The notes below the pieces were generated by a model. The model was not told the DNA's origin and did not search any database. It saw only the letters and a list, made by a program, of their open reading frames with translations. The position numbers and the translations under genes were made by a program. DNA of 64,000 bases from Bacilli bacterium (lineage in GTDB: Bacteria; Bacillota_I; Bacilli_A; RF39; UBA660), in assembly GCA_016295795.1 (NCBI GenBank), contig JAEDKN010000001.1, positions 6,845 to 70,844 of the forward strand. Reading direction: 5' to 3'. Below, one piece after another: positions 36,505 through 60,058 of this stretch. Position 1 is the first letter of the stretch. Every line of letters begins with the position of its first letter.

Positions 36505-37707
36505 TTAATCTTTATCTACTCTAATTACTATTTGGTAAAAATCCTCAAAATCAAATTCTTCTACTTCTATCTTACTTCCAGATTTTTTAATATTTTCTAT
36601 TGTATCTTTTATCTTATTAACCGTCAAACTTACATCTTTTTTCTCCTTTGATGGTTGTGAAGACACTATATCATTAATATTAGGGAAGAATTGATTATTA
36701 TTCACATCATCACTATTCTTTTTAGTCTCAACTGGCATAGCAGAAAAATTCTTATATAAATTATTTTCAAAACCAATATTATTTGATTGCTGAGTCTCTT
36801 GTGTAGGTTGTTTTACTGTCTCCTCAAGACTCATTCCAGCCAAAAGACCACTTCCACCAATAATTTCTTCTTTTGGCATATTTGAATTAGAATTCATTGC
36901 GTTATCCAAACTTTGTCCATAGCCATTATCAATTGGCCTTAAAATTTGAGACATATCTGTAATTTGCGAATCATTATTGTTTGATATATTTTCAGGATTG
37001 CTATGAATTTTATCAACTTCTACTTCTAGAGGTTCTATATTGCTAAATGATTGAGGGTTAAAAATAGACTGATTATCATTTTTTATATTATTATCTTCTT
37101 TTCCGTTTTCTACGGTTTCTCTTTTTATTTCTTCATCCAATTCGCGAACAGTCATTCGGCTAGATATTACTTTTCTTAAAAGTTCAACTTGTTTTTGTGG
37201 ATCCTCAACGTTTAAAAGACTTCTTGCGTGGCGCTCAGATATTTGCTCATGCAAAAGGGCATCTTGTACCTCATCTGTCAATGACAGCAATCTTAATTTG
37301 TTTGAAACTGCTGATTGAGACTTTCCCATAGTTTTAGCTAATTCTTCTTGAGTAAGAGCATCTAATTCTAAGATTTTCTGATATGTCCTTGCTTCCTCTA
37401 TTGGTGTTAAATCTTTTCTTTGCAAATTTTCAATTAATGCAACTTTTGAACTTTCTTTATCATCTAAATTTTTAATTATAGCCGGAATCTTTGTTAACCC
37501 TGCCATAGTTGATGCTTTATATCTTCTTTCTCCAGCAATTATTTCATATTTTTCACCAATTTGCCTTACAACAATAGGTTGAATAACTCCATGTTCTTTT
37601 ATTGAAACAGCAAGTTCCTTTAATGCCTGTTCATCAAAATTTTCTCTTGGTTGAAATCTATTCGGTATAATATCATCTAGATATAAATATCTTACCTCAT
37701 TTTCCAT
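36505..37707 (-). CDS. noc: Nucleoid occlusion protein Noc (ParB paralogue) with an unusually long low-complexity C-terminal extension
   Basis: It sits between soj and rsmG, the noc position. The ParB N-domain carries IIPNRFQPRE and GERRYKAS motifs, with an HTH. Residues from about 200 to 400 are N/S/Q-rich and low-complexity. Confidence 0.75.
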   Translation of the reverse strand: MENEVRYLYLDDIIPNRFQPRENFDEQALKELAVSIKEHGVIQPIVVRQIGEKYEIIAGERRYKASTMAGLTKIPAIIKNLDDKESSKVALIENLQRKDLTPIEEARTYQKILELDALTQEELAKTMGKSQSAVSNKLRLLSLTDEVQDALLHEQISERHARSLLNVEDPQKQVELLRKVISSRMTVRELDEEIKRETVENGKEDNNIKNDNQSIFNPQSFSNIEPLEVEVDKIHSNPENISNNNDSQITDMSQILRPIDNGYGQSLDNAMNSNSNMPKEEIIGGSGLLAGMSLEETVKQPTQETQQSNNIGFENNLYKNFSAMPVETKKNSDDVNNNQFFPNINDIVSSQPSKEKKDVSLTVNKIKDTIENIKKSGSKIEVEEFDFEDFYQIVIRVDKD

Positions 37708-37765
37708 ATTACAACCTCCATTTTATTCTTTATTCTCAATTTATTATACATTATTCTTTTTTTTT

Positions 37766-38467
37766 TTACAATGATTTTTTTATTTTATCCATACTCCTTG
37801 GATACTTTTTTGGTGTTGAAGAAAACTTTTTAATGTCAATTAGTGTCCTTTCACTATTCTCAATTGGTAATTTGAAATTTTGGATATTATTTATTTTACC
37901 GTTTAATTTTGATATTATTTCCTTTGAACTTTCTAGTTCTTCAATATATGAGGCCTTCATCAATATTAAGTGCCCTCCTACTTTTAATGATTGAAAGGAA
38001 ATTTCTGATAATACTTGTATTTTAGCAACAGCCCTAGAGGTTATTATGTCAAACTTTTCAATATTATTTTTAGAATAATCTTCCATTCTAATATGTATTG
38101 CTTCTATTTCACTCATTTTTAATTCTTGAATTACATGATTTAAAAAAGTTATTCTCTTATTTAAAGAATCTATTAGTGTAACTTCTAAATGTGGGAAAAC
38201 TATTTTTAAAATTATCCCTGGAAAACCCGCACCTGTACCAACATCACACAAAGACATATTCTTATTAAAATCAATTATTTTGCAAAGCGTTAAACTATCA
38301 TAAAAATGTTTTAAATAAACGTCTTCTTTATTAGTTATAGATGTTAAATTAATTTTTTCATTCCAAGAAATTAATAGTTGATAAAATTTTTCTAATTGTT
38401 CTAATTGTTTTTCTGTTAAATTAAGTCCTATTTTTTTTGTTTCTTTTATAAATATATCTAAATTCAT
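37766..38467 (-). CDS. rsmG: 16S rRNA m7G527 methyltransferase RsmG (GidB)
   Basis: LCDVGTGAGFPGI SAM motif. It overlaps the mnmG stop by 4 nt. Confidence 0.93.
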   Translation of the reverse strand: MNLDIFIKETKKIGLNLTEKQLEQLEKFYQLLISWNEKINLTSITNKEDVYLKHFYDSLTLCKIIDFNKNMSLCDVGTGAGFPGIILKIVFPHLEVTLIDSLNKRITFLNHVIQELKMSEIEAIHIRMEDYSKNNIEKFDIITSRAVAKIQVLSEISFQSLKVGGHLILMKASYIEELESSKEIISKLNGKINNIQNFKLPIENSERTLIDIKKFSSTPKKYPRSMDKIKKSL

Positions 38468-40332
38468 ATTCGCTTTTCCTTTTTTAAATACACCATTAAA
38501 ATTGAAATATCTGACGGATTAACTCCACTAATACGAGAGGCTTGAGCAATAGTTGTTGGTTTTATACTGCATAGTTTTTGTCTGGCTTCGCTTGCTAAAT
38601 TCTGAATATTTTCATAATTAATATTTTCTGGTATTTTTAATTTTTCTAAATCTAACATTTTTTCAGCCTCGCGATTGGCTTTATTAATATATCCTTCATA
38701 TTTATCTTGAATTTCTACCTGCTCCATTACTTCTTTAGAAAAATCAATGTTTATCCAATGTTTTAAAATTTCGATTGTGATTTCTGGTCTTTTTAATAAT
38801 TCATATAAAGTAATACCATCTAATAACCTTGTTGAATTAATCCTTTCTAGATATTTATTATTTTCTTCAGTTGGATTTATTTTATTAGATTTTAGTAAAT
38901 CTGTTAATTTTTGAATTTCTCCTTTTTTCTTTAAAAATCTCTGATATTTTTCCTCAGAAATTAAACCAATATCATAGCCATATTCTCTTAATCTTAAATC
39001 GGCATTATCGTGTCGAAGAAGTAACCTGTACTCTGCGCGAGATGTTAACATTCGATATGGTTCCTTTGTCCCCTTAGTAACTAAATCATCAATCAAAACT
39101 CCAATATAAGCTTCATTTCTTTTCAACACGAAAGGTTCCTGTTTATGAATTTTTCGTGATGCATTAATACCTGCTATTAATCCCTGTCCTGCTGCTTCTT
39201 CGTAACCACTTGTTCCATTAATTTGACCTGCAGTAAATAGATTCTCTATTATCTTTGTTTCTAAGGATTGTTTTAATTGTAAAGGATCAAGCGCATCATA
39301 TTCTATTGCATAAGCATATTTTAGTATATTGGCATTTTCAAGCCCTGGAAGTGAATGCACCATCAAATCTTGAATTTTTTCTGGCATGCTAGTAGAAAAT
39401 CCTTGAATATAAATATCGTCATAATACAAACTTTCTGGTTCTAAGAACAGTTGATGCCTTTCTTTATCTTTAAATCGTACTACTTTATCTTCAATAGATG
39501 GACAGTATCTTGGGCCAATTCCTTCTACATAACCACCATACATACTAGATTTTTCTAAATTTTCCATAATTATTTTATGTGTCTCAGGTGTTGTATAAAT
39601 TAAATGACATGGTACTTGATCTTCAACCTTATATAGGGGAATATTAGTAAAAGAAAAAGTATGTGGCTCATTATCACCTGGTTCAATATTTGTTTTAGTA
39701 TAATCAATACTATTCTTAGCAATTCTTGGAGGAGTTCCGGTTTTTAATCTTTGAATATTAAAACCATATTCTTTTAATCTTTGGCTTAAAAATTTAGAGG
39801 TTTTTTCGCCATGTGGTCCACTTGTTGTTTTTTTATCTCCTCTTAAAATAACCGCTTTTAAATAAGTTCCTGTAGTTAGAATTACTGCCTGTGCTTCAAT
39901 TTTTTCACCATTTTCTAATACTACACCTTTTACTATACTATTTTCTATTATTAAATCTTCTACTAATGATTCTAAAACATTTAAGTTTTCTTGTTTTCTA
40001 ATAGTTTTCAACATAGCTTTTGGATAAGTAATCTTATCCCCTTGTGCACGTAAAGCTCTAACCGCTGGACCTTTTTTTGTATTTAACATTTTTACTTGAA
40101 TACAACTATGATCGATGTTATTAGCCATTTCGCCTCCTAAGGCATCAATTTCTCTAACTATAATTCCTTTTGCAGGACCCCCAATAGATGGGTTACAAGG
40201 CATGTCAGCTATATTATTTATATTACCTGTTACTAATAAAGTTTTATTTCCAAGGCGAGCAGATGCCAACGATGCTTCGCATCCAGCGTGTCCTCCACCT
40301 ACTACAATAATATCATATTGCATTTTTATCAC
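38464..40332 (-). CDS. mnmG: tRNA uridine-5-carboxymethylaminomethyl synthesis enzyme MnmG (GidA)
   Basis: YDIIVVGGGHAGCEA FAD-binding N-terminus, 622 aa. Confidence 0.96.
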   Translation of the reverse strand: MIKMQYDIIVVGGGHAGCEASLASARLGNKTLLVTGNINNIADMPCNPSIGGPAKGIIVREIDALGGEMANNIDHSCIQVKMLNTKKGPAVRALRAQGDKITYPKAMLKTIRKQENLNVLESLVEDLIIENSIVKGVVLENGEKIEAQAVILTTGTYLKAVILRGDKKTTSGPHGEKTSKFLSQRLKEYGFNIQRLKTGTPPRIAKNSIDYTKTNIEPGDNEPHTFSFTNIPLYKVEDQVPCHLIYTTPETHKIIMENLEKSSMYGGYVEGIGPRYCPSIEDKVVRFKDKERHQLFLEPESLYYDDIYIQGFSTSMPEKIQDLMVHSLPGLENANILKYAYAIEYDALDPLQLKQSLETKIIENLFTAGQINGTSGYEEAAGQGLIAGINASRKIHKQEPFVLKRNEAYIGVLIDDLVTKGTKEPYRMLTSRAEYRLLLRHDNADLRLREYGYDIGLISEEKYQRFLKKKGEIQKLTDLLKSNKINPTEENNKYLERINSTRLLDGITLYELLKRPEITIEILKHWINIDFSKEVMEQVEIQDKYEGYINKANREAEKMLDLEKLKIPENINYENIQNLASEARQKLCSIKPTTIAQASRISGVNPSDISILMVYLKKEKRI

Positions 40333-40405
40333 TTCCTCTTTTTTCTGGAATTATTATACAATAATTTTTATGTTTTACGAGTTTTTTTTTAATATATTAA
40401 AAAAT

Positions 40406-40423
40406 TATTTCCCGGGAAATAAT
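40406..40423. promoter_or_regulatory. Copy 1 of the perfect palindrome TTATTTCCCGGGAAATAA, in the mnmE-mnmG intergenic region
   Basis: Direct reading. It lies about 74 bp upstream of the mnmG start codon. Confidence 0.5.
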
Positions 40424-40481
40424 TTTTGAAATTAAATTATATTTTATGAAGCATAACTACACTTATCTGAATTAATTTTTT

Positions 40482-41837
40482 TTACTTTCCTAGGCAAAAC
40501 TGACTAAATAATTGATCTATTAATTCTTCGTCATATGTCTCTCCTATTATTTCTCCTAGTTTTTCCCAAGCACGTTTAATATCTATTTCTATCATATCTA
40601 CTGGCACTTGATTTTCTATTCCTATTTCTACCTCTTCTAAAATATAATTTGCCTCTTTTGCAAGCGAAATTTGTCTTACATTGCTGAGATACATATAATC
40701 TTCATGTTCTAATTCATTTAAATTGAACAATTCTGTTATTTTTTCTTTTAAGGAATCAATTCCTCCTAAATCTACTGTATTTGTATATATAATATTTTTA
40801 TATTGAATTTTTTCAATATTAATTTTTCTTTCTAAGTCATTTTTATTAATTACAACAATTGTCTTTTTCTCTTTACAAGCTTCTAATATTTTTTCGTCTT
40901 CTTCTGAAAGTTCTTCGTTATTATTTAATACTAAAATTACTAAATCAGCTTCTAATATCAATTTTAAACTTTTTTCTACTCCTAGTTTTTCAACAACATC
41001 TTCTGTTTCACGAATTCCCGCAGTGTCTATAATATTTAACGCTACGCCATTAATTGTAATACTTCCTTCTACAGTGTCTCTAGTCGTTCCCTCAATATCT
41101 GTAACTATAGCTTTCTCTTCATCTAATAATCTATTTAAAATACTGCTTTTTCCAACATTTGGTTTACCAATTATAATAGTCTTAATACCAGTAGTCAAAA
41201 TTTTTCCGTTTTCCGATTCATTAATAATTTTTGATAATTTTCTTTTAATTTCTATTATTTTAGGTTTAATTATATCATTCGTCATAACAATTGCATCATC
41301 ATATTCGGGATAGTCGATATTTACTTCAATCGACGCTAGAAGTTCTAATATTTCTTGTCGAAGGTCTCTAATAATATTACCAACATAACCATTTAATCCA
41401 TTGATAGCTACTTTTCTTTTAGATTCACTTTTTGAACTAATCAAATCCATTACTGATTCTGCTTGCGTTAAATCAATTCTACCATTCAAAAATGCACGCT
41501 TAGTAAATTCTCCGGGTTCTGCCAATCTTGCTCCATTATTTAGTACTATTTCTAATACTTTATTTGTAGTAGAAATGCCTCCATGACAATTTATCTCAAC
41601 AATATCTTCTGTTGTAAAAGTTTTTGGAGATTTCATAACTGTTACTAAAACTTCATCTATTATCTCATTTTTTTCTTTAATATTACCATAATGTATTGTA
41701 TGAGAATCTACTTTTTCCAAATCTTTTCCCTCAAAGATCTTATTTACAATCTTAATTGAGTCTTTTCCACTTACTCTAATAATAGAAATAGCACCTACAC
41801 CTATAGTAGTTGAAATTGCAGCAATTGTATCAGTCAT
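40482..41837 (-). CDS. mnmE: tRNA modification GTPase MnmE (TrmE)
   Basis: G-domain motifs GKPNVGKSS, DTAG and NKND, with the C-terminal CLGK motif. Confidence 0.96.
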   Translation of the reverse strand: MTDTIAAISTTIGVGAISIIRVSGKDSIKIVNKIFEGKDLEKVDSHTIHYGNIKEKNEIIDEVLVTVMKSPKTFTTEDIVEINCHGGISTTNKVLEIVLNNGARLAEPGEFTKRAFLNGRIDLTQAESVMDLISSKSESKRKVAINGLNGYVGNIIRDLRQEILELLASIEVNIDYPEYDDAIVMTNDIIKPKIIEIKRKLSKIINESENGKILTTGIKTIIIGKPNVGKSSILNRLLDEEKAIVTDIEGTTRDTVEGSITINGVALNIIDTAGIRETEDVVEKLGVEKSLKLILEADLVILVLNNNEELSEEDEKILEACKEKKTIVVINKNDLERKINIEKIQYKNIIYTNTVDLGGIDSLKEKITELFNLNELEHEDYMYLSNVRQISLAKEANYILEEVEIGIENQVPVDMIEIDIKRAWEKLGEIIGETYDEELIDQLFSQFCLGK

Positions 41838-41891
41838 AAAATAAACCTCCTTTTCATATTATATTAACATTTTTTTATATAAAAAGAAAGC

Positions 41892-42506
41892 TTATTTGCT
41901 TTCTATGTATTTTACTATCACCGCTCTGTTAGGTTCCTCGCCTACACTCTCAGTTTTTATGTTATTGTAATCAGATAAAATAGTATGTACTACTCTTCTT
42001 TCATAAGAATTCATTGAGTCCAATTTTACATCTGTTTTAGTTTTTACAACATCTTTTGCTATATTTTTAGCTAATCTTTCAATTTTATTTTTATGTTTTA
42101 ATTTATATTCACTTACATCTAGAACAAATGGAAAATAAAATCCTAATTCATTATATAAGTATTGTTTTAAAATATTATTTAAAGCTTCAATTGTTCGTCC
42201 TTGTTTACCAATTAAAATATTATTATTATCACTAAAAATAGTAACAGTTGTTATTCCTTCTCGTTCTTTAATTTCAAACTTTGTTTTTATTCCCATCAAA
42301 TTTATTATTTTTTCTAATTTGTTTTTTATTTCTGAAATAATTTCTTCTTTTGTTATAACCTCAATTTCAACTTTTTTAGATTTAAATATTCCACTTTTTA
42401 TTTCTATTTCGTTAAAGAAAAATTCACTTTCTTTACACTTTAAAGTCTCTGCTGCTAACATTTTTGCTTCTTCTAAATTTTTTCCTATAAAACTATTTTT
42501 TTTCAT
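41892..42506 (-). CDS. jag: RNA-binding protein KhpB/Jag (KH plus R3H)
   Basis: A C-terminal R3H motif (ERRVVHTIL...GEEPNRAVIV). It lies downstream of yidC. Confidence 0.88.
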   Translation of the reverse strand: MKKNSFIGKNLEEAKMLAAETLKCKESEFFFNEIEIKSGIFKSKKVEIEVITKEEIISEIKNKLEKIINLMGIKTKFEIKEREGITTVTIFSDNNNILIGKQGRTIEALNNILKQYLYNELGFYFPFVLDVSEYKLKHKNKIERLAKNIAKDVVKTKTDVKLDSMNSYERRVVHTILSDYNNIKTESVGEEPNRAVIVKYIESK

Positions 42507-43416: not shown

Positions 43417-43755
43417 TTATTTCTCCTTTTGGTTTATTTTCTTTATTAGAAATATAAAATTTTGTTCTAAATTGCTAAAATCAATTTCTAAACAAGCTTT
43501 CCTTAATATTATAATATAATCTAAATTTTTTTTGTAGTATTTTTTATTGTTGTCAATAATATTTCTTATTCTTCTTTTATATTTATTTCGATAAACCGCA
43601 TTACCTATTTTTTTTCCAACAGATATTCCAAAACGATATTTATCAAGATTATTTTTTTTATAATATATAATAAAATATTTATTTTTAATTTTCTCTCCTG
43701 TATTCAATATACTATTAAATTCATAATTTTTTTTAACTATATTGTTTTTTTTCAT
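43417..43755 (-). CDS. rnpA: Ribonuclease P protein component
   Basis: A 112-aa basic protein. KKNYEFNSIL...RNKYKRRIRN matches the RnpA RNR-like motif region. Confidence 0.9.
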   Translation of the reverse strand: MKKNNIVKKNYEFNSILNTGEKIKNKYFIIYYKKNNLDKYRFGISVGKKIGNAVYRNKYKRRIRNIIDNNKKYYKKNLDYIIILRKACLEIDFSNLEQNFIFLIKKINQKEK

Positions 43756-43822
43756 AGGGTTACTCCTTTTTCAATATACAAATATATTATATCAAAAAAA
43801 AAGCCACATTTACAGTGGAATA

Positions 43823-43942
43823 TTAAACTAATTTTTTTCGTCCTTTTTTTCTACGATTATTAATTACTTTACCTTTTATTCTCGAAAAAAATCCATGTTT
43901 CTTTGCTTTTTTTCTATTATTTGGTTGATACGTTCTTTTCAT
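43823..43942 (-). CDS. rpmH: 50S ribosomal protein L34 (missed by the ORF track because it is under 60 aa)
   Basis: My hand translation of the minus strand gives [39 protein letters not shown] (39 aa). This is the canonical L34 sequence, positioned just upstream of rnpA. Confidence 0.93.
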
Positions 43943-43955
43943 TTCTACACCTCCA

Positions 43956-44246
43956 AACTAAAGTCTCTCCTATTATAATAGTCTTATATACTCTTTGTCA
44001 ATCAATTTTTTAATTTTATTTATTCCACAAAATTAACAACGCTGTTGAAATTTTTTTCAATAGTTGTTTATTTAAATTTGTGGAAAATGTGGAAAATTGA
44101 TTATTTTTCTTGTTAATTAGGGTTTTTATTGTGAATAATTCTGTGACTTTGTTGTTAATAAAATTTTATTTTACATTTATTCTTTATTTTTTCAACAACT
44201 TAAGTTACAATATCAATAGATTTACAATTCTTTTATCCAGGGGGCG
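43956..44246. promoter_or_regulatory. oriC upstream module: a DnaA-box cluster between rpmH and dnaA
   Basis: TGTGGAAAA (rc TTTTCCACA) occurs twice in tandem at 44068-44076 and 44077-44085. TGTGAATAA (rc TTATTCACA) is at 44131-44139. Weaker boxes are at about 44011 (TTATTCCACA) and 44232 (TTATCCAGG). The position relative to dnaA is conserved. Confidence 0.6.
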
Positions 44247-44255
44247 GTGATAAAA

Positions 44256-45626
44256 ATGGATGAGAAAAAAATTTGGAGTACTGTTCTTTCTAAAATCAAA
44301 GAAGAAATTAATTCTTTATCTTTTCAAACGTGGTTTGAGGAAACAGAATTATACAGATTAGATAAAAATGTAGCGAAAATTATTGTCCCTTATGCAATAC
44401 ATAAAAACCATATTATGAATAATTACCACGATATAATCGTAGAAAATCTATATGAGTTAACCAAAGTTACATATGAACTAGAATTATTATTAAAAGAAGA
44501 TATTAAAGAAGATAAAATTGAGAATATTAAAGAAATAAATAATTTTAATACCGAAACCGTCAGCATAGAAAATAATTTTATTGATTCAAATTTAAATTCA
44601 AAATATACATTTGAAAATTTTATAGTAGGGAATAGTAACAAATTTGCACATGCTGCTGCATTAGCTGTTGCTGAAAACCCTGGTAAGATGTATAATCCAC
44701 TATTTATTTATGGAAATAGCGGACTAGGTAAAACACATTTAATGCATGCTATTGGCAATTATATAGTAAAAAATAGTAACAAAAAAGTGTTATATGTTAC
44801 CAGCGAACAATTTGTTTCAGATTTTATAGGAATTAATAAAAAGGATGAAAGTGGAACAAATTTCAGCTATGTGGACTTTTTTAAACAGAAATACAGAAAT
44901 ATTGATGTTCTCATTATAGACGATATACAATATTTAGGTGGTGCAACCGAAACACAAAAGGAGTTTTTTCATACTTTTAATACTTTATATGGAGATAATA
45001 AGCAAATTATAATTTCTTCAGATAGATCTCCAGATGATTTAAAAATTTTAGAGGATCGTTTAAGAACTAGATTCTGTTGGGGATTACCCGTTGATATATA
45101 TCCTCCAGATTTTGAACTTAGAGTTGCAATATTAAAAAAACGCATTCTTGGTGAAGCCATAAACAAGGAAATACCAGAACAAGTAATAGAATATATGGCT
45201 TCAAATTTAGGTAGTGATATTAGACAACTCGAAGGTGCAGTTACTAGATTGGTAGCTTATTCAACAATTATGGGATCTGAAATTGATTTAAATCTTGCGA
45301 TGGAAGCATTAAAAGATTATATAAATAAAGGTATAAGTGAAAAAAATAACGTAAACAAAATTCAAAAAGTTGTGGCAGAATATTTTCAAATTTCTGTCGA
45401 AGATTTGAAATCAAAAAAAAGAAATTCTAATATTTCATTTCCACGACAAATTGCAATGTACCTGTGCAGAAAATTTACTGATGAATCTTTTCCTAAAATA
45501 GGTATAGAATTTGGAGGAAAAGATCATTCAACTGTTATGCATTCATGTGAAAAAATTGAAAAGGAAATTAGAATTAACAAAGATTTAGCAGATACAATAG
45601 ACAAATTACAAAAAGAAATTCACTAA
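44256..45626 (+). CDS. dnaA: Chromosomal replication initiator DnaA
   Basis: A Walker A motif GNSGLGKTHL, an AAA+ sensor region, and a C-terminal DNA-binding domain (ISFPRQIAMYLCRKFT). I favour the start MDEKKIWS at 44256 (the ORF track gives 44247). Confidence 0.96.
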   Translation: MDEKKIWSTVLSKIKEEINSLSFQTWFEETELYRLDKNVAKIIVPYAIHKNHIMNNYHDIIVENLYELTKVTYELELLLKEDIKEDKIENIKEINNFNTETVSIENNFIDSNLNSKYTFENFIVGNSNKFAHAAALAVAENPGKMYNPLFIYGNSGLGKTHLMHAIGNYIVKNSNKKVLYVTSEQFVSDFIGINKKDESGTNFSYVDFFKQKYRNIDVLIIDDIQYLGGATETQKEFFHTFNTLYGDNKQIIISSDRSPDDLKILEDRLRTRFCWGLPVDIYPPDFELRVAILKKRILGEAINKEIPEQVIEYMASNLGSDIRQLEGAVTRLVAYSTIMGSEIDLNLAMEALKDYINKGISEKNNVNKIQKVVAEYFQISVEDLKSKKRNSNISFPRQIAMYLCRKFTDESFPKIGIEFGGKDHSTVMHSCEKIEKEIRINKDLADTIDKLQKEIH

Positions 45627-47035: not shown

Positions 47036-47497
47036 ATGAATTTTTATGAAATTAATGAAGAAACATTAGCAATAATACCAATTGATTATGAAAAAACAAA
47101 AGTTATTGAATTAAATAACGAATACATTGTAGATAAAAAAGCTTATCAAGTTATGGATGAAAGTTGTCAATATTATGGAAGTACATATAAAGGAAGACTT
47201 ACTGCAGCAAAAAAAATACTAGAATGTGCATACAAAATACCAATATTAGTTGAAGAAACTCAAAGTATTATATTTTTTCCAACTAAATCATCTTTAGAAG
47301 AAGATTGTTGCTGGATTAATTTTAATCAAATAAAAAAAATAGAAAAAAGAAATAATGATACGTTAGTTACTTTTAATAATAATAAAGAAATATTATTTGA
47401 TATTTCTAAGTTATCTATTGAAAATCAAATATCAAGATCAACAAGATTAGGTTATCTAATTCAACAAAGATTAAAAAAACAACAAAATATAAATTAA
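47036..47497 (+). CDS. comK: ComK-family protein (competence transcription factor homologue)
   Basis: ETLAIIP...QVMDESCQYYGSTYKGR...KIPILVEETQSIIFFPTKSSLEEDCCWINFNQIK...NDTLVTFNNNKEILFDISKLSIENQISRSTRL. Each block aligns with a B. subtilis ComK block (ATIAVLP, QIVDRSCRFFGSSYAGR, KPPIMVDPSNQIFLFPTLSS...CGWISHVHVK, DDTEVTFSNGKTMELPISYNSFENQVYRTAWL). Confidence 0.75.
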   Translation: MNFYEINEETLAIIPIDYEKTKVIELNNEYIVDKKAYQVMDESCQYYGSTYKGRLTAAKKILECAYKIPILVEETQSIIFFPTKSSLEEDCCWINFNQIKKIEKRNNDTLVTFNNNKEILFDISKLSIENQISRSTRLGYLIQQRLKKQQNIN

Positions 47498-53074: not shown

Positions 53075-53102
53075 TAAAAAAATAATTTTATTAAATACAA
53101 AA

Positions 53103-53149
53103 TTATTTCCCGGGAAATAAATTATATAAAAATATTTCCCGGGAAATAT
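53103..53149. promoter_or_regulatory. Copies 2 and 3 of the ATTTCCCGGGAAAT palindrome, in tandem (TTATTTCCCGGGAAATAA at 53103-53120 and ATATTTCCCGGGAAATAT at 53132-53149)
   Basis: Direct reading. The centres are 29 bp apart, about 50-95 bp upstream of the ffs -35 element and just before the gyrA terminator. Confidence 0.5.
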
Positions 53150-53153
53150 TTTT

Positions 53154-53179
53154 ATGTTTCACGTGAAACATGTTTTTTT
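53154..53179 (+). terminator. gyrA terminator: the palindrome ATGTTTCACGTGAAACAT followed by a T7 run
   Basis: A perfect 18-bp palindrome followed by GTTTTTTT. Confidence 0.6.
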
Positions 53180-53197
53180 GAAATATAAAATAAAGTC

Positions 53198-53226
53198 TTG
53201 CAAAAATATAAAAAATAATATAATAT
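53198..53226 (+). promoter_or_regulatory. SigA-type promoter of the SRP RNA (TTGCAA-17-TAATAT)
   Basis: -35 TTGCAA at 53198-53203, a 17-nt spacer, and -10 TAATAT at 53221-53226. The predicted +1 lies about 7 nt downstream, where the SRP RNA helix begins. Confidence 0.5.
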
Positions 53227-53232
53227 AATTAT

Positions 53233-53310
53233 CGATGCAACAATCATGGTGGAACCAGGTCAGAATCGGAAGATAGCAGCCTTAACACTTAATGATTGTG
53301 TGCATCATTT
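53233..53310 (+). ncRNA. ffs: Small (4.5S-type) signal recognition particle RNA
   Basis: It contains ACCAGGUCAGAAUCGGAAGAUAGCAGCC, matching the universally conserved SRP domain IV (ACCAGGUCAGGUCCGGAAGGAAGCAGCC). The flanking arms GAUGCAACAAUCAU and AUGAUUGUGUGCAUC pair. Its position between gyrA and tadA is the B. subtilis scr locus. The ORF-track ORF 53292..53771 starts inside it. Confidence 0.7.
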
Positions 53311-53327
53311 ATTATGGAGTGATGAAT

Positions 53328-53771
53328 ATGGATGATCGCTTTATGAAAATAGCTTTATTAGAGGCCAATAAAGCGTATAACAACTCTGATGTACCAGTGG
53401 GAGCCATTATTGTATATAAAAATAAAATTATAGCAAAGGGATATAATAAAAAAGAAAAAAATCAAAATGTTTTGAAACATGCAGAATTGATAGCAATAGA
53501 TAAAGCTTGTAAAAAAATGAAAAGTTGGCGTTTGAACGAATGCGTTATTTATACCACATTATTTCCTTGTCCAATGTGTGCGGCAGCAATTCAACAAGCA
53601 AGAATATCAAAATTGGTTTATTTAGATAATTCTAATAATAAATTTATTACTCATATATCCAGTAATATATTACATAACAAAAAAAATAATCATCAAGTGA
53701 GAATAGAAAAAATTAATATACATTCTGATTTGATTAGGACTTTTTTTAACGAGCTAAGAGTTAATAAATAA
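53328..53771 (+). CDS. tadA: tRNA-specific adenosine deaminase TadA
   Basis: CDA zinc motifs HAELIAI and PCPMCAAAI. I trimmed the start to MDDRFMKIALLEA at 53328, which follows a GGAGTG RBS and clears the SRP RNA. Confidence 0.9.
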   Translation: MDDRFMKIALLEANKAYNNSDVPVGAIIVYKNKIIAKGYNKKEKNQNVLKHAELIAIDKACKKMKSWRLNECVIYTTLFPCPMCAAAIQQARISKLVYLDNSNNKFITHISSNILHNKKNNHQVRIEKINIHSDLIRTFFNELRVNK

Positions 53772-53801
53772 TGTTTCACGTGAAACATTATTTATTTTTT
53801 T
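53763..53801 (+). terminator. tadA terminator: the 34-bp perfect palindrome AATAAATAATGTTTCACGTGAAACATTATTTATT followed by a T-run
   Basis: Direct reading. It overlaps the tadA stop codon and shares the TGTTTCACGTGAAACA core with the gyrA terminator. Confidence 0.6.
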
Positions 53802-53880
53802 CTTAAAATTCAATTTCTTGATATGAAATGAAAATAAAAAGTGATATAATATATGTATCTTTGTTGAAAGGAGGAAAAAA

Positions 53881-55425
53881 ATGCTTTATCAGAGCTTATA
53901 TAGAAAATATAGACCTTCAAGATTCGATGAAGTGTATGGACAAAATGTTGCTAAAAAAATACTTGTTAATTCTATAATCAATAATCGAATTTCACATGCA
54001 TACTTATTTTTCGGACCTAGAGGAACGGGAAAAACATCAATAGCAAAAATGTTTTCTCGAATTATTAATTGTTTAGATATAAAAGATGGAGAATGCTGTG
54101 AAAAATGTGAAAATTGTATTAATAGCAAAGATAAAAATTGCATTGATATTATAGAAATTGATGCTGCTTCTAATAATGGTGTAGATGAAATAAGAGAACT
54201 AAAAAACAAAATAAACTTAGTTCCTAACAATTTAAAATATAAAGTTTACATTATAGATGAGGTACATATGCTTTCAACCGGAGCATTTAACGCTTTATTA
54301 AAAACGCTTGAAGAGCCACCAGAACATGTTGTTTTTATACTCGCAACAACTGAAATATATAAAGTTCCTTCTACAATAATTTCTAGATGTCAAACAATTG
54401 AATTTAAAAAAATAGACAATAATAGTATATTTGAAAGACTTAATGAAATTTCAAAAAAAGAAAATATTAACATATCCGAGGAAGCTATAAGAGAAATAGC
54501 TAGAAATTCAAATGGTGGAATGAGGGACGCTATAGGAATATTAGATAAGGTTTTTTCTTATGCTAATGATGATGTAAAAATAGATGATGTTAAATCTGTA
54601 TTAGGACTTATAACTGAAAATGAAATCAATCAATTTGTTTCGTCTTTACTAGAAGGAGATTTTACTTTTTTACTAAAAAAAATTGATGAATATTCTGATT
54701 CTGGAAAAGATCTTTTTAAGATACTTAATGATATTATTTTTAAAATAAAAAATATGATAGTTTTAGAAGAAAAGTACGAATTGATAGAAATTTTAAATAA
54801 AATTAATGAATATCATGTAAAAATGAAATTTTCTCATAATCCTGAAATTATATTTCAAATGTTGATATTAGATTTGACTGCAACAGGTTGTAAAACAAAT
54901 GTTCGAAAAAATATTTCCCGGGAAATATTTTCTGAAAATGAAAAGAATAAAACGGCAAATACTATATCTACTTATATTATATATGCGAGAAAAAATAATT
55001 CTTTTGCTAACGCTGATAAAAATCTTTTAAATGAGATAAAGCAAAAGTGGAAAAATTTAAATAAGTATATATTTGATAAAAATATTGGGGCATTTATATG
55101 TGATTTGGAGGATAGTGTACCTGTTGTTTGCAGTAAAAACAACTTGATGATTTGCACAGAATATTCCTCATCTTCGAACAAAATAAATGAAAGTCTTGAA
55201 ATTTATGAAGATATTCTTCTAACAAAATTTGAAATTGATCAAAAATTAATTGCTGTTGATAAGAAGGAATGGGGTGAGTTGAAGGCAGAATATTTAAGAA
55301 AACTGAAAAACAATGAAAAATACGAATATATTCTTGAAAATGATTCCCAAGCGGAAAAAAATACACAAGAAAATGATATAATAGATCGAGCCAAAGATTT
55401 GTTTGGCGAATTAATAATTAATTGA
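53881..55425 (+). CDS. dnaX: DNA polymerase III subunit tau/gamma
   Basis: YRPSRFDEVYGQ, a Walker A motif GPRGTGKTS, a Zn module (CEKCENC), and the SRC motif (IISRCQ). Confidence 0.95.
   Translation: MLYQSLYRKYRPSRFDEVYGQNVAKKILVNSIINNRISHAYLFFGPRGTGKTSIAKMFSRIINCLDIKDGECCEKCENCINSKDKNCIDIIEIDAASNNGVDEIRELKNKINLVPNNLKYKVYIIDEVHMLSTGAFNALLKTLEEPPEHVVFILATTEIYKVPSTIISRCQTIEFKKIDNNSIFERLNEISKKENINISEEAIREIARNSNGGMRDAIGILDKVFSYANDDVKIDDVKSVLGLITENEINQFVSSLLEGDFTFLLKKIDEYSDSGKDLFKILNDIIFKIKNMIVLEEKYELIEILNKINEYHVKMKFSHNPEIIFQMLILDLTATGCKTNVRKNISREIFSENEKNKTANTISTYIIYARKNNSFANADKNLLNEIKQKWKNLNKYIFDKNIGAFICDLEDSVPVVCSKNNLMICTEYSSSSNKINESLEIYEDILLTKFEIDQKLIAVDKKEWGELKAEYLRKLKNNEKYEYILENDSQAEKNTQENDIIDRAKDLFGELIIN
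54910..54929. promoter_or_regulatory. Copy 4 of the palindrome (AATATTTCCCGGGAAATATT), located inside the dnaX coding sequence
   Basis: Direct reading. It is in frame, encoding N-I-S-R-E-I-F at DnaX codons 344-350, and is immediately preceded by an A AAA AAT heptamer. Confidence 0.5.
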
Positions 55426-55438
55426 GGAGAGATAATAT

Positions 55439-55732
55439 ATGAATATGCAAGCTATAATGAAACAAGCACAAACTTTACAAAAGGAAATGATGAAAACCAA
55501 AGAAGAAATAGACAATACTGAATTTGTTGGAAATAATTCTTTTGTAACTGTTGTTACAAATGGGAAAAAGGAAATAAAGAAAATTAAAATTGAAACAGAA
55601 AAATTAGAAAAAGAAGATATAGAAATATTAGAAGATATGATTATGGTTGCTGTTAATAATGCATTTAAAAGTGTTGATAAACTTACTGAGGAAAAAATGG
55701 GAAAATATGCAAATATCCCTGGACTTTTTTAA
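55439..55732 (+). CDS. ybaB: Nucleoid-associated protein YbaB/EbfC
   Basis: A 97-aa protein (MQAIMKQAQTLQKEM...) between dnaX and recR. Confidence 0.9.
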   Translation: MNMQAIMKQAQTLQKEMMKTKEEIDNTEFVGNNSFVTVVTNGKKEIKKIKIETEKLEKEDIEILEDMIMVAVNNAFKSVDKLTEEKMGKYANIPGLF

Positions 55733-56328
55733 TGTATCCAAAAAGTATTAAAAATTTGATTGAAAGTTTTAAAATGCTTCCTGGAATAGGTGAAAAAACA
55801 GCTGAGAGGATGGCGTTTTTTATACTAGATTTTGATGAAGAAAATGTAGAATTCTTTTCAGAAAGTTTATTGAATGCAAAAAATAATATCCGTAAATGCA
55901 GTATTTGTAATAATTTTACTGATAATGATATATGTGATATTTGTGCTGATAAAACACGTAATAATGAAATTTTATGTATTGTAGAAGATCCTAAAAATAT
56001 ATATATGTTTGAAAAAAATGGTGTTTTTAATGGATATTATCATGTCATTGAAAATTTGATCTCGCCATTGGATGGTATAAATCCTGAGGATATTGGTTTA
56101 GAAAAATTATTAAAAAGGATTAAAGAAAACAACTTTAAAGAGATAATAATTGCTGTTAAGCCGAGCATTGAAGGGGAAACTACTAGTTTATATATAAAGC
56201 GAGTTTTGGAGGGGTTAAATATTAAAATTACTCGTATTGCTAGTGGAATACCAATTGGAGCAGATATGGAATATATTGATGCATTGACTTTAGAGAGGGC
56301 TATTCTAGATAGAAAAGAATTAGAATAG
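55732..56328 (+). CDS. recR: Recombination protein RecR
   Basis: HhH motif LPGIGEKTAERMAF, a C4 zinc finger (CSICNNFTDNDICDIC), and a Toprim domain. Confidence 0.95.
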   Translation: MYPKSIKNLIESFKMLPGIGEKTAERMAFFILDFDEENVEFFSESLLNAKNNIRKCSICNNFTDNDICDICADKTRNNEILCIVEDPKNIYMFEKNGVFNGYYHVIENLISPLDGINPEDIGLEKLLKRIKENNFKEIIIAVKPSIEGETTSLYIKRVLEGLNIKITRIASGIPIGADMEYIDALTLERAILDRKELE

Positions 56329-56365
56329 AATAGTTTTTTCTTCATAAAATTAAACAGGTGATTTT

Positions 56366-56545
56366 ATGTTAAAACTAATTAAAAAAATTTTATTTGCAGT
56401 GTTTTTATTATATAGTTTCAATTTGATATCAGTTAATTTTAATATAATAATTCCGATTAATTTTATAACTGTTTTATTAGTTGCTTTACTTGATTTGCCT
56501 GGAATGATAACATTATTAATATCTATGATAACTATATTTAGTTGA
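56366..56545 (+). CDS. bofA: Pro-sigma-K processing inhibitor BofA (59 aa, missed by the ORF track)
   Basis: My hand translation gives MLKLIKKILFAVFLLYSFNLISVNFNIIIPINFITVLLVALLDLPGMITLLISMITIFS*. It has two TM helices and the BofA-like IPIN...G.LG/PG core, with an AGGTG RBS 7 nt upstream. Its position after recR matches the B. subtilis recR-yaaL-bofA arrangement. Confidence 0.6.
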   Translation: MLKLIKKILFAVFLLYSFNLISVNFNIIIPINFITVLLVALLDLPGMITLLISMITIFS

Positions 56546-56559
56546 TAAGGGTGAAATTT

Positions 56560-57381
56560 ATGAATGATGAATTTAATAAATTATTAAATAGTATTTCTAA
56601 AACTAACAAGATTGGACATGCCTTCTTATTTGAGGTTGATGATGATTATTCGACAGATAAATCTATTTATTTTATAAAAAAAATATTAGAGAAAGATATT
56701 GATGACAGAAATAAATTAGAAGATATTTATAGAAGAATTGACAATAATATTTTTGAGGATTTAAAAATAATTAGATCGTTAGATAATACAATAAAGAAAG
56801 AACAGATAATTGAATTAAAATCAGAATTTAAAAATAAGTCTTTAAATTCTATAAAAAGATTTTACATAATAGAGTATGCAGAATATTTAAATCCTGCAGC
56901 TGCAAATTCTCTTCTAAAATTTTTGGAAGAACCTGATGATGAGATTATTGCTATATTGGTTACTAAAAACATATATAGTGTTTTAGAGACAATAATTTCT
57001 CGTTGCCAAACTGTTAATTTAAATAGATATGTAACTCGTGTGGATGATGATAGCTTTTCTGAAGCTTTAAAATATATAAAAATTTATGAAAATAATGGTA
57101 ATAGGGCCGTTGCTTATTTATCAGAATTATATAATTTAAAAATAGAAGATATAAAAAAATATATTGAAAGTTGGATGTTAATTTATAAAAATATTTTAGA
57201 TATTTTATTGAATAAAGAGTCATCGAATAGCTCTGATTTTATTGAAGAATATAGGGAAATATCTACCAAAAATAAAATTGAAAATATAATAAAAAAGATA
57301 AAAAAAGTTGAAAAAATGGAAAGACTTATTAATTCTAATGTTAATGTTAGGGTGATTTTGGATCAACTATTTATTGATTAG
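56560..57381 (+). CDS. holB: DNA polymerase III delta-prime subunit (HolB)
   Basis: GHAFLFE and ISRCQTV (SRC) motifs. I trimmed the start to MNDEF at 56560. The gene is followed by ricT, as holB-yaaT is in B. subtilis. Confidence 0.75.
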   Translation: MNDEFNKLLNSISKTNKIGHAFLFEVDDDYSTDKSIYFIKKILEKDIDDRNKLEDIYRRIDNNIFEDLKIIRSLDNTIKKEQIIELKSEFKNKSLNSIKRFYIIEYAEYLNPAAANSLLKFLEEPDDEIIAILVTKNIYSVLETIISRCQTVNLNRYVTRVDDDSFSEALKYIKIYENNGNRAVAYLSELYNLKIEDIKKYIESWMLIYKNILDILLNKESSNSSDFIEEYREISTKNKIENIIKKIKKVEKMERLINSNVNVRVILDQLFID

Positions 57382-57392
57382 GGAGGTAAAAC

Positions 57393-58196
57393 ATGAAACA
57401 AAAAGTGGTGAAAATATCTTTTTTAAATTCAAATAAAACATATTTCTTTTCTAACAATAATTTAGACCTAGAAGCAGGTGAGAGTGTAATTGTCGAATCA
57501 GACAGAGGAATTCAGTTTGGAACGGTTAATAGCAAAATTTTTGAATTAGATGAAAACAAGATAATGAAACCCTTGAAAAAAGTTATTAGAAAAGCTACAA
57601 AGGAAGATATCAAATTATACGAAAAAAATAAGAGTGACTCTAATGTCGCTTTAAACAAAGCTAAATCTTTGGCAAAATCATTGGATTTGAAGATGAATAT
57701 ATTAAATGCTAATTTTACTCTTGATAGAAATCAATTAATTTTTAATTTTATTGCAGATGACCGAGTTGATTTTAGAGAATTAGCAAAAAAATTAGCTTCA
57801 ATTTATAAAACTAGGATTGAATTGAGGCAAATAGGTGTTAGAGATAAGGCAAAAGAAATAGGAGGCCTTGGTCCTTGCGGAAGATTTTTATGTTGCAACT
57901 TATTTTTAAATGATTTTGAAACGGTTTCTATAAATATGGCAAAAAATCAATATATTTCATTAAAGCCAGACAAAATTAATGGTATTTGTGGTAGATTACT
58001 ATGTTGTCTGAATTATGAAGATGAGCAGTATACTGAATTAAAAAAAGATTTTCCAAATATAGGAAGTATAATTAAATATAAAAATATAACAGGGAAAGTT
58101 ATTAGTCACAATTTGTTTAAAAGAACATTTGATATAGAAACAGCTGATAAAACTATTATAAATTTGGAATTGAGTAATTATGAAAGTAATAAATGA
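57393..58196 (+). CDS. ricT: PSP1-domain protein RicT (YaaT), stage 0 sporulation/RNase Y regulator
   Basis: A PSP1 C-terminal domain with Cys clusters (GPCGRFLCCNLF and GICGRLLCC). Confidence 0.85.
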   Translation: MKQKVVKISFLNSNKTYFFSNNNLDLEAGESVIVESDRGIQFGTVNSKIFELDENKIMKPLKKVIRKATKEDIKLYEKNKSDSNVALNKAKSLAKSLDLKMNILNANFTLDRNQLIFNFIADDRVDFRELAKKLASIYKTRIELRQIGVRDKAKEIGGLGPCGRFLCCNLFLNDFETVSINMAKNQYISLKPDKINGICGRLLCCLNYEDEQYTELKKDFPNIGSIIKYKNITGKVISHNLFKRTFDIETADKTIINLELSNYESNK

Positions 58197-58899
58197 TTTG
58201 CTTGGATATAAAAATTTAAAAATAGTTCAAGATACTGATTGGTTTAGTTTCTCTTTGGATTCAGTATTACTTCCTAATTTTGTAACTTTAAATAAAAACG
58301 TTAAAAAAATTTTAGATATAGGAACTGGAAATGCACCGATTCCATTAATATTATCTACTAAAACTGATGCTGAAATATATGGAATAGAAATTCAGAAAGA
58401 AGTTTACGAAATGGCAAGGGAAACTATAGAATTGAATTCGTTGGAATCAAAAATAAAACTAATAAATGATGATGTAAATGAGATAGACAAGTATTTCAAA
58501 CCCGAAACATTTGATGTGATTCTTTCAAATCCTCCATATTTTAAACTAAATGGAAAATCAAAATTAAATGAGGTTAACACTAAGGCTATTGCAAGACACG
58601 AAATTTCGTTAACGCTCGATCAGTTATTGACTGTTTCGTCTAAACTTTTAAAAAATAAAGGAAAATTTGCTATGGTACATAGGGTTGATAGACTAACTGA
58701 AATATTAAGTTTAATGAAAGAAAGAAATATTGAACCAAAAAGAATCAAATTTATATTTCCAAAAGAAAACACTACTTCAAATCTTTTTTTGGTGGAGGGT
58801 GTTAAAAATGCAAATTCAGGAATTAAAACTATAAATTATATAATTGTACATACTGAGAACGGAAAATATACTGAAGAAGTAATGAAATGTTTCGAATAG
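58180..58899 (+). CDS. SAM-dependent methyltransferase, YabB/TrmN6-like tRNA (adenine-N6)-methyltransferase
   Basis: ILDIGTGNAPIPLIL and an NPPY motif. The gene follows ricT, as yabB does in B. subtilis. Confidence 0.7.
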   Translation: MKVINDLLGYKNLKIVQDTDWFSFSLDSVLLPNFVTLNKNVKKILDIGTGNAPIPLILSTKTDAEIYGIEIQKEVYEMARETIELNSLESKIKLINDDVNEIDKYFKPETFDVILSNPPYFKLNGKSKLNEVNTKAIARHEISLTLDQLLTVSSKLLKNKGKFAMVHRVDRLTEILSLMKERNIEPKRIKFIFPKENTTSNLFLVEGVKNANSGIKTINYIIVHTENGKYTEEVMKCFE

Positions 58900-58908
58900 G
58901 AGGATATT

Positions 58909-59748
58909 ATGAGACAAAAGAGTTATGATGGAACTAATTCACTTTACCTTATTCCTACTCCCGTCGGAAATATGGATGATATAACAAAAAGGGCGTTAGA
59001 TACATTAAAAATGGTTGATTTAATACTTTGCGAAGATACTAGAGTAACCTCAGAATTATTACGAAAATTTAATATTAAAAAGAAATTAATACATTGTGAT
59101 GATCATAATGAAAACGATTTAAAACAAAAGATTTTAGAAAAATTAAATGATGGGTTAAATATAGGACTTGTGACAGATAGAGGAACTCCTATAATAAGTG
59201 ACCCTGGATATAAAATTGTACAATTTATATCTAAGAATGGCTATAATGTTATTAGTTTGCCAGGACCTACTGCTTTTGTCCCTGCTTTGACAATGTCTGG
59301 AATTAACCCTGCCCCTTTCTTGTTTTATGGATTTTTAAATAGTAAAGAATCAAGAAGAGTAAAAGAACTTGAATCTTTGAAAAAATTACCTTATACTATC
59401 ATTCTATATGAAGCGCCTCATAGAATTTATGATATGTTAAAATCATTACTTGAAGTATTTGGTAATAGGAGGATTGCTTTATGTAGAGAAATTAGTAAAA
59501 AATATGAAGAAGTTATTCGTGGAACCCTTGAAGAAGTATTAGAAATAGCAGATACTTTGAAAGGAGAAATGGTTGTTGTTGTAGAAGGAAATTTACAACA
59601 AGAAGATTTTTCCACTATGACTGTTTTGGAACATATTAATCTTTATTTAGAAGATGGCATGACCGAAAAAGAAGCTATTAAGAAAGTAGCGATAGAAAGA
59701 GATGTACCTAAATCTGTTATATATAGAGAGTATCATATTAATAATTAA
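58909..59748 (+). CDS. rsmI: 16S rRNA (cytidine1402-2'-O)-methyltransferase RsmI
   Basis: LYLIPTPVGNMDDITKRALDTLKMVDLILCEDTRVT, the tetrapyrrole-methylase fold N-terminus of RsmI. Confidence 0.9.
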   Translation: MRQKSYDGTNSLYLIPTPVGNMDDITKRALDTLKMVDLILCEDTRVTSELLRKFNIKKKLIHCDDHNENDLKQKILEKLNDGLNIGLVTDRGTPIISDPGYKIVQFISKNGYNVISLPGPTAFVPALTMSGINPAPFLFYGFLNSKESRRVKELESLKKLPYTIILYEAPHRIYDMLKSLLEVFGNRRIALCREISKKYEEVIRGTLEEVLEIADTLKGEMVVVVEGNLQQEDFSTMTVLEHINLYLEDGMTEKEAIKKVAIERDVPKSVIYREYHINN

Positions 59749-60036
59749 TTTTTTAGGTAATATATATATTAAAAGATTAAATATTTATGTAATTGATTCA
59801 AATTCATATAGTCTTGTGAGATCGCTATTAATTGCTAAGGAATGTGATAATTGTAATAATGAAACTCTAGGTTTCAGAAAAGATTATGGTCCTTGAGATT
59901 TATAATATTCAAAAATTACAGAATATACTAAATTTAAATGAATAGGCAACAACAACAGATGAATTATAATACAGAAAATAAATTTATTGTAAGTTGGGTA
60001 GTAAGTAATAAGACTATTTAAACTAATTTAGATTAA

Positions 60037-60058
60037 AATTATTTCCCGGGAAATAATT
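60037..60058. promoter_or_regulatory. Copy 5 of the palindrome (AATTATTTCCCGGGAAATAATT), 20 bp upstream of the pth start codon
   Basis: Direct reading. It lies between the putative pth promoter region and the RBS (GAGGTG at 60067-60072). Confidence 0.5.

Follow-up and report, generated by a model that had tools for sequence, protein, structure and literature searches.

Candidate Noc-binding sites interleaved with parS at the replication origin, and a Noc-family protein without the membrane helix, in an uncultured lineage of Bacilli

A 14-bp palindrome occurs five times in a 64,000-nucleotide stretch of DNA from a Bacilli bacterium (GTDB lineage RF39; UBA660; assembly GCA_016295795.1, contig JAEDKN010000001.1, positions 6,845 to 70,844), hereafter called the window, together with the gene for a ParB paralogue that resembles Noc. 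The question raised by this locus is which protein the palindrome serves, and whether the pair works in the manner known from Bacillus subtilis. Nucleoid occlusion in Firmicutes has Noc as its model, which also provided the first example of a cytidine triphosphate (CTP) switch shown to control membrane binding, and the accepted mechanism of Noc rests on an N-terminal amphipathic helix and on Noc-binding sites (NBS) spread over most of the chromosome. The Noc-NBS system has reportedly been worked out by Wu & Errington 2004, Wu et al. 2009, Adams et al. 2015, Jalal et al. 2020 and 2021, and Pang et al. 2017. We consider it likely that the five palindromes are NBS-type loading sites of a Noc-family CTP clamp encoded at 36505-37707, in a derived, origin-confined variant of the system that stands alongside ParB and its site parS. 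The match to the NBS by itself is ordinary, and it is the architecture specific to this lineage that is the surprising part.

Five exact copies of ATTTCCCGGGAAAT are present in the window, beginning at 40407, 53105, 53134, 54913 and 60041, and none was found in 100 dinucleotide-preserving shuffles of the same DNA (chance expectation 0). Throughout the window no further site appears when one or two mismatches are allowed, and the four additional matches gained at three mismatches are at chance level (9 found vs 3.8 expected). Every copy is preceded by T and followed by A, giving the 16-bp TATTTCCCGGGAAATA, and at all five the palindrome is lengthened by AT-rich flanks. Four lie in intergenic DNA (the mnmG/mnmE gap, a tandem pair downstream of gyrA with a start-to-start distance of 29 bp, and upstream of pth) and one lies inside dnaX; the original prediction had described just such a set, between genes and within dnaX and including the 29-bp tandem, and all of it is seen in the window:

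40407..40420: NBS-1, between mnmG and mnmE; dnaA lies 3.8 kb to the right, and the start of mnmG (mnmG-rsmG-noc-soj-parB string) 75 bp downstream
53105..53118: NBS-2, the leading copy of the tandem pair that follows gyrA
53134..53147: NBS-3, the other copy of that pair, starting 29 bp after the NBS-2 start
54913..54926: NBS-4, within dnaX (codons 345-349, translated I-S-R-E-I)
60041..60054: NBS-5, intergenic, with the start codon of pth 25 bp downstream
53881..55425, plus strand: dnaX, host gene of NBS-4

The B. subtilis NBS consensus is 5′-ATTTCCCGGGAAAT-3′ (Wu et al., 2009, as quoted in PMC3020112), the duplex in the Noc-NBS crystal is GGATATTTCCCGGGAAATATCC (PMC7383237), and the consensus from chromatin immunoprecipitation sequencing of Staphylococcus aureus Noc has the same core (PMC5540599). 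The window palindrome agrees letter for letter with the NBS published for B. subtilis and S. aureus (14 bp / 16 bp), and the resemblance pointed out in the original prediction is an exact match to the quoted consensus (PMC3020112) and to the crystallised duplex (PMC7383237). The GC content of the window is 27.8%, and all five of its CCCGGG hexamers fall within NBS copies. A restriction target of the SmaI type was considered and rejected, since every CCCGGG sits in a full 16-bp NBS with conserved flanks, a context for which a 6-bp target is an inadequate explanation.

The candidate cognate protein is encoded on the left arm of the window, beside the genes for the partition-type proteins Soj and ParB:

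36505..37707, minus strand: noc-like gene, 400 aa, between rsmG and soj-parB
35601..36392, minus strand: soj/parA, ParA-family ATPase
34736..35623, minus strand: parB/spo0J, with the parS-type recognition residues R-M-N-S

That the window encodes a Noc paralogue had also been proposed, and the 400-aa open reading frame (ORF) is indeed a Noc-type ParB paralogue whose best solved-structure matches are Noc of Geobacillus (7ng0/7nfu, 1.7e-64) and of B. subtilis (7ol9, 1.8e-53), with Spo0J/ParB structures lower. The NCBIfam Noc model TIGR04285 (nucleoid_noc) gives it 298.4 bits vs 243 for the window ParB, and the match is split in two stretches by a linker. The protein comprises a ParB/Srx CTP-binding N-domain, a helix-turn-helix (HTH), the linker at about 205-356 and a Noc-type C-terminal domain at 357-400, and its CTP motifs GERRYK (59-64) and ENLQRK (93-98) are invariant among 42 clade homologues. 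The switch from parS to NBS recognition has been assigned to four positions, at which Noc carries Q173, K179, K184 and R201, and ParB carries R at the first and G at the last (PMC7383237). In Caulobacter ParB numbering, Q173 reads A1 and R201 reads C6 of the half-site, given K at 179 or 184 (Jalal et al., 2020; PMC7383237). At the equivalent positions the Noc-like protein has Q-K-S-R (Q131, K137, S142, R159), compared with R-M-N-S in the window ParB, and this combination should be NBS-competent by analogy, since K at either 179 or 184 suffices in Jalal et al.

The likeness to the B. subtilis and S. aureus system thus extends from the identical 14/16-bp NBS and the rsmG-noc-soj-parB gene position to the GERR and ENLQR motifs, the Q/K/R residues, the Noc-type C-terminal dimerisation domain and the occurrence of sites both in and between genes, and CTP would presumably gate clamp loading at NBS here as it does there. 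In contrast to ParB, the Noc-like protein has Q and not R at the key recognition position, and it is without the N-terminal ParA-interaction peptide; the window ParB carries a ParA-contact-like motif, RRALGMGLEELF, at its N-terminus. With an identical consensus and a cognate Noc-type protein in the same window, the identification of the palindrome as the NBS of this organism, which was the core of the original prediction, is supported as far as sequence analysis allows.

The Noc-like protein departs from B. subtilis Noc at its N-terminus. It aligns from residue 26 of Geobacillus Noc (7nfu) and from residue 2 of the NocNdelta26 construct (7ng0), and its start codon, an ATG, is secure, given a GGAGG in front of it and a stop in the same frame 6 codons before it, so that the N-terminal amphipathic membrane-targeting helix (residues 1-10/15), essential in B. 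subtilis Noc, is absent. The homologues of its clade (loci L001-L014, L027, L123 and L127) all begin alike and are helix-less, and the helix is kept in Noc of Sporolactobacillus (MKHPFSKIF...), L060 (MKFPFL...) and L121 (MKIPFF...). It is extremely conserved across the Noc homologues examined by Adams et al., and in B. subtilis the NocNdelta10 form has lost both membrane association and function (PMC4331003). The B. subtilis model is not supported on this point, the paralogue lacking the helix that canonical nucleoid occlusion requires. As a protein it resembles NocNdelta10 and the G. thermoleovorans NocNdelta26deltaCTD truncation, which are nucleoid-binding and not membrane-binding forms, and it starts as Ndelta26 does; unlike these engineered truncations, it is natural and clade-conserved, and it comes with a long linker and relocated sites.

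This linker is the other difference from canonical Noc. In the window protein about 150 residues, variable and rich in N, S and Q, lie between the HTH and the C-terminal domain, and a linker of about 150 aa or more is shared by the clade, whose proteins range from about 340 to 600 aa. The AlphaFold2 per-residue confidence (pLDDT) is 85-95 over residues ~80-200 and 82-87 over 357-400, and falls below 50 over 205-356, where the linker is predicted to be disordered. Two conserved islands, IIGGSGLLAGM (282-292) and NNLYKNF (315-321), stand out in the otherwise hypervariable linker. They are candidate partner-binding motifs, and the first loosely recalls the N-terminal GxGLxAL ParA-contact peptide of ParB. 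When the linker was scanned by hydrophobic moment for a relocated amphipathic helix, the top match was non-conserved and contained a proline, a result that decides neither way.

The helix was most likely lost secondarily in this clade, judging from the protein sequences. Neighbour-joining analysis with the ParBs as root pairs the helix-less clade with Bacillales Noc as its sister group in 187 of 200 bootstraps and puts the helix-bearing L060 and L121 at the base, which points to secondary loss; the tree is a rough one, with Noc monophyly recovered in 104 of 200. An ancestral intermediate between ParB and Noc was considered for the helix-less protein and rejected as the preferred explanation, since helix-bearing Noc stands on both sides of the clade. 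The closest named record is from Clostridium sp. CAG:710 (67% identity), the rest being uncultured 'Bacilli' metagenome-assembled genomes from human, rabbit, sheep and chicken guts, and the 100%-identical cluster representative of the Noc-like protein is P0001.

The location of the sites is likewise unlike that in the known systems. The window is the oriC region, with a change of sign in GC skew at about 44 kb and the gene order of the classical Firmicutes origin (ORI) cluster, which is ancestral in that phylum (PMC8136486). On the left arm, minus strand, lie parB, soj, the noc-like gene for the 400-aa ParB paralogue, rsmG, mnmG, mnmE, jag, yidC and rnpA; on the right arm, plus strand, lie dnaA (44247), dnaN, recF, gyrB, gyrA, the signal recognition particle (SRP) RNA, tadA, dnaX, ybaB and recR, and farther on pth and mfd. 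Two features mark the origin itself:

44079-44138: cluster of DnaA-box-like sites upstream of dnaA, origin marker
44247-45626, plus strand: dnaA, origin marker (marker region 44079..45626)

Measured from the dnaA start, the NBS of the window range from -3.8 to +15.8 kb and the other 44 kb hold none; across the 40 kb left of 40407 no NBS is found even with 2 mismatches. The generality of this pattern was assessed in a metagenome scan with the pattern WWWTATTTCCCGGGAAATAWWW, which matches 30 of 31 NBS in independently fetched clade loci. The scan returned at least 120 stretches, and the counts given here and below hold among the matches listed. At least one homologue of the window's origin-region genes accompanies 102 of the 110 low-GC loci (GC < 0.40) and none of the 10 loci with GC >= 0.40, the latter indicating that the scan is able to detect non-origin sites in other lineages. 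The low-GC loci hold 191 NBS, located in gyrA/tadA gaps (42, plus 48 at locus ends by gyrA or tadA), inside dnaX (22), between jag and mnmE (11), recF and gyrB (7), mnmE and mnmG (5) or tadA and dnaX (5), and also upstream of pth. The eight low-GC loci without an origin-gene match fall mostly in other origin-proximal places (polA-fpg, metG-tatD, rpsF-ssb-rplI), the polA-fpg NBS of L080/L091 being 6-9 kb left of dnaA. Contigs of 100 kb or more numbered 19 among these matches, adding up to 3.6 Mb with a maximum of 581 kb, and in each of them all NBS lie within 21 kb or less. B. subtilis, in contrast, has ~70 NBS over most of the chromosome (PMC4331003) and S. aureus has 41 over +/-700 kb (PMC5540599), and in both species they are also enriched towards the origin (PMC4331003; PMC5540599). 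The evidence for confinement of NBS to about +/-20 kb of oriC in this lineage, drawn from these sequences, is strong but not conclusive. The idea that the five copies are members of a chromosome-wide scatter, at ordinary origin-proximal density, finds no support in sites that, in this lineage, are concentrated within ~20 kb of dnaA, at fixed positions and interleaved with parS.

A canonical nucleoid occlusion system of the B. subtilis type is an unlikely reading of the locus. On that view NBS would be many and scattered over most of the chromosome, the five seen here being an origin-proximal subset, and a substitute element, e.g., a hydrophobic linker island, would provide the membrane tether that blocks the Z-ring over unsegregated DNA. 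The NBS sequence, the gene position and the CTP motifs are all as that reading would have them, the hydrophobic and glycine-rich IIGGSGLLAGM is conserved in the linker, 64 kb of the genome is what is visible, and the B. subtilis and S. aureus sites are likewise origin-enriched. What counts against it is that the helix is absent clade-wide and NocNdelta10 is non-functional in B. subtilis (PMC4331003), that the linker yielded no conserved amphipathic segment, that the 40 kb left of NBS-1 are empty of sites, and that among the matches listed the low-GC loci are origin contexts in 102 of 110 cases, including contigs of up to 581 kb with NBS at the origin only.

The reading of a derived, origin-confined Noc variant is further supported by the arrangement of NBS relative to parS. 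Two perfect parS sites, unmentioned in the original prediction, are present in the window:

53155..53170: parS-1, perfect 16-bp TGTTTCACGTGAAACA, beginning 8 bp past the NBS-3 end and followed by a T-run
53772..53787: parS-2, perfect TGTTTCACGTGAAACA, in the tadA/dnaX gap

The five palindromes differ from these real and separate parS sites (53155, 53772) at the specificity positions, the NBS half-site having A1/C6 and that of parS G1/A6. The tandem pair and parS-1 form a module at 53105-53170 composed of NBS, 15 bp, NBS, 7 bp and parS. The distribution of NBS in this lineage looks like one typical of parS itself, and the system is in this respect like ParABS (ParB/Spo0J-parS), in which origin-proximal clusters of a 16-bp palindrome load a CTP-dependent clamp of the ParB fold; here the two kinds of cluster are interleaved. 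Among the matches listed, a parS with at most one mismatch lies within 100 bp of 63 of the 191 low-GC NBS, and the distances between NBS and parS centres cluster at 22-30 bp with a minimum of 22 bp, so that the two kinds of site abut and do not overlap.

In relatives, conspecific and related contigs reached through DnaX homologues, NBS and parS occur together in the gyrA-tadA-dnaX gaps of every dnaX neighbourhood sampled (46-100% DnaX identity). NBS-1 is at the same place with identical flanks, ~2.7 kb upstream of noc, in L001, L002 and L004; NBS-2 is kept in the conspecific contigs L036 and L037; the NBS-3/parS-1 pair is kept with the same 21-bp start-to-start offset in L040 (DnaX 83% identical); and parS-2 is conserved in L036-L041. 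For NBS-5, the conspecific L038 has a copy with one mismatch and L040 has none. Single sites turn over and the cluster persists. NBS and the Noc-like protein are found together across this clade of uncultured, low-GC gut Bacilli. Arrays of up to 7 NBS copies alternating with parS are found in relatives: six NBS and five parS, most of which form adjacent pairs, separate gyrA from tadA in L041, and L042 has three of each. Tandem arrays with one NBS and one parS per unit have a period of ~105-115 bp in L046 and L089 (2469-3010), that of L046 (9191-9835) being a regular array with a unit of ~115 bp in which all six parS copies are the variant TGTTACACGTGAAACA; units of ~200-270 bp are repeated in L041 (7925-9271), L056, L067 and L129. 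In a search of the literature, with incomplete coverage, no description of a helix-less Noc or of composite NBS/parS arrays was found.

Such intimate pairing raises the alternative that a Noc-like protein binds NBS mainly to modulate ParB, as a roadblock, boundary or competitor at parS, with no function of its own. That NBS and parS abut in alternating arrays with 22-30 bp between centres is in its favour, as is the fact that ParB and Noc, the latter shown in B. subtilis to close and slide as a clamp, are both CTP-dependent sliding clamps (PMC8429893). We regard it as improbable all the same, given that 128 of the 191 NBS among the matches listed are without parS within 100 bp, as are NBS-1, NBS-4 and NBS-5 of the window, and that no experimental precedent was found in the literature.

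The copy inside dnaX is a recurrent one. In 20 loci an NBS lies at the same place within the variable linker of DnaX (residues ~340-386), where it is read as ISRE in 17 and, in another frame, as YFPGN in 3, and the DnaX segment around it is only 13-39% identical at the protein level between genomes. As the 14-mer is conserved across reading frames, protein-level selection cannot explain it, and the dnaX NBS is under DNA-level selection. This bears on the idea that the palindromes are operators of an unrelated transcription factor for the mnmG operon, the SRP RNA/tadA region and pth, which we judge very improbable: four of the five do lie in intergenic DNA, 25-110 bp upstream of genes or of an RNA gene, and yet the dnaX copy is intragenic and conserved with two different reading frames running through it, in relatives as many as 7 copies stand in alternation with parS, the sequence is the NBS of a protein encoded 2.7 kb away, and promoter scans around the sites gave hits at or near background with no consistent placement relative to promoter-like hexamers. 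Structural elements of RNA or DNA (intrinsic terminators, hairpins like those of repetitive extragenic palindromes) rather than protein sites are the least credible reading. The extended palindromes are able to fold, a free energy of -29.9 kcal/mol (z = -5.65) being reached by the tandem pair together with the hairpin of parS, and this hairpin, with its T-run after gyrA, could contribute to termination. Single sites, by contrast, are weak (-7.1 to -9.3 kcal/mol, z -0.65 to -2.0), none of the NBS is called in a terminator scan, one copy lies within a gene (dnaX), terminators have no need of an invariant 14-mer, and it is the sequence identity, not pairing potential alone, that is conserved across genomes with DnaX 37-60% identical, orthologous NBS being either identical or lost with no compensatory pair-preserving substitution seen among them.

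If the sites are read as loading points of a Noc-family clamp, a mechanism can be sketched. Noc-like dimers would nucleate at each NBS through the HTH, with Q reading A1, R reading C6 and K being permissive, and would then take CTP, close as a clamp and slide to the flanking DNA. Noc of S. aureus spreads 8-10 kb per site (PMC5540599), and with spreading of that order the five NBS, together with ParB loaded from the interleaved parS, would coat roughly the region from oriC to mfd. As the NBS lie at -3.8 to +15.8 kb and are interleaved with parS, the Noc-like protein and ParB would load next to each other, and both clamps would coat the same origin domain. Since the helix has been lost and a disordered linker gained, chromosome-wide anchoring of DNA at the membrane, as by B. 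subtilis Noc, is improbable for such a complex; its more probable role is to mark or organise the origin region, with partners that the linker probably recruits. Candidate outputs may include origin-specific division control, control of replication initiation as for S. aureus Noc, and origin organisation. A bolder proposition, which we put forward tentatively and with less than even confidence, is that this clade converted Noc from a chromosome-wide membrane tether to a second origin-specific clamp, forming a composite ParB/Noc origin complex loaded at the interleaved NBS/parS arrays, with its output (segregation, control of replication initiation or origin-specific division control) passed on by the linker instead of by membrane binding.

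Several points weigh against this interpretation. Every case of Noc binding to NBS in this lineage is deduced from sequence. The Noc-like protein scores under the curated cutoff of TIGR04285 (298.4 vs 315 bits), and unlike canonical Noc, in which the K at position 184 is near-invariant, the clade has S/T/A at the equivalent position, leaving 3 of the 4 specificity positions matched; the competence of Q-K-S-R is judged by analogy with Caulobacter ParB mutants. A membrane- or partner-binding element could hide in the linker. The window covers 64 kb of one genome, and NBS farther from the origin are possible; the scan pattern takes AT-flanked sites only, and the contigs sampled are those among the matches listed. 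At least one low-GC locus, L107 with its NBS in a pyr operon, is truly non-origin in appearance, the sole such case among the eight low-GC loci without an origin gene. The low-GC loci also include the helix-keeping lineages L060 and L121, so that origin confinement and helix loss are not strictly linked. Finally, the co-localisation of NBS and parS might reflect no more than the need of both for the few large non-coding gaps near oriC.

What makes the lineage worth attention is that, naturally and throughout a conserved clade, the DNA-recognition half of Noc (NBS, Q/K/R, CTP motifs) is unchanged, while the helix is gone, the linker is new and the sites have collapsed onto the origin. If this picture is true, the Noc loading module would be re-usable for another cellular output, and the arrays would offer, in nature, a single DNA on which two paralogous CTP clamps are loaded next to each other, making clamp cross-talk and the elusive Noc partner directly testable. 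In gut metagenomes of humans and animals the lineage is abundant; with no cultured model, sequence-based leads on its cell cycle are scarce.

Some further observations concern the binding sites and proteins of relatives. A recurrent NBS position flanks polA and fpg (mutM), 6-9 kb left of dnaA (L053 7783; L080 888; L091 1929; L109 1990; L140 1947, 4886), and there is none at that position in the window. L012 and L013 belong to a more distant helix-less Noc-like group with Q-T-S-R, thus with no K at either permissive position, a combination that was non-functional in the Caulobacter ParB background; no NBS is found in these two loci, and the target may differ. In the marine alphaproteobacterial loci L028-L032, tandem parS variants TGTTTCACATGAAACA lie 28 bp apart at ~6533-6594, a conserved doublet unrelated to NBS.

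Other observations concern the genes and composition of the window. The small SRP RNA (Rfam RF00169, 57.5 bits) occupies 53224-53319 and shares its last part with the beginning of the longest tadA ORF (53292-53771); TadA is 147 aa in the gene calls of conspecific contigs, and the true start is probably a downstream ATG (MNMDDRF...). Between dnaN and recF lies an ORF of 153 aa (47036-47497, plus strand), whose window protein is without an NCBIfam match and whose orthologues in all relatives belong to Pfam PF06338 (ComK), an unusual member of the dnaA-dnaN-recF-gyrB string. A BofA-like gene (59 aa, 56366-56545, plus strand) and a SpoVT-like gene (L036, 20864-21370), both of sporulation-associated families, are located past recR and mfd in this genome, which is small and of low GC, and in those of relatives. 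On the left arm, which is otherwise uniformly negative in GC skew, the local skew rises to about -0.05 at ~10000-16000 with a positive AT skew, suggesting a block of genes on the opposite strand or an insertion. Lastly, an L31-Firmicutes ribosomal-protein leader is located at 3681-3711 on the minus strand (RF03156, 36.8 bits).

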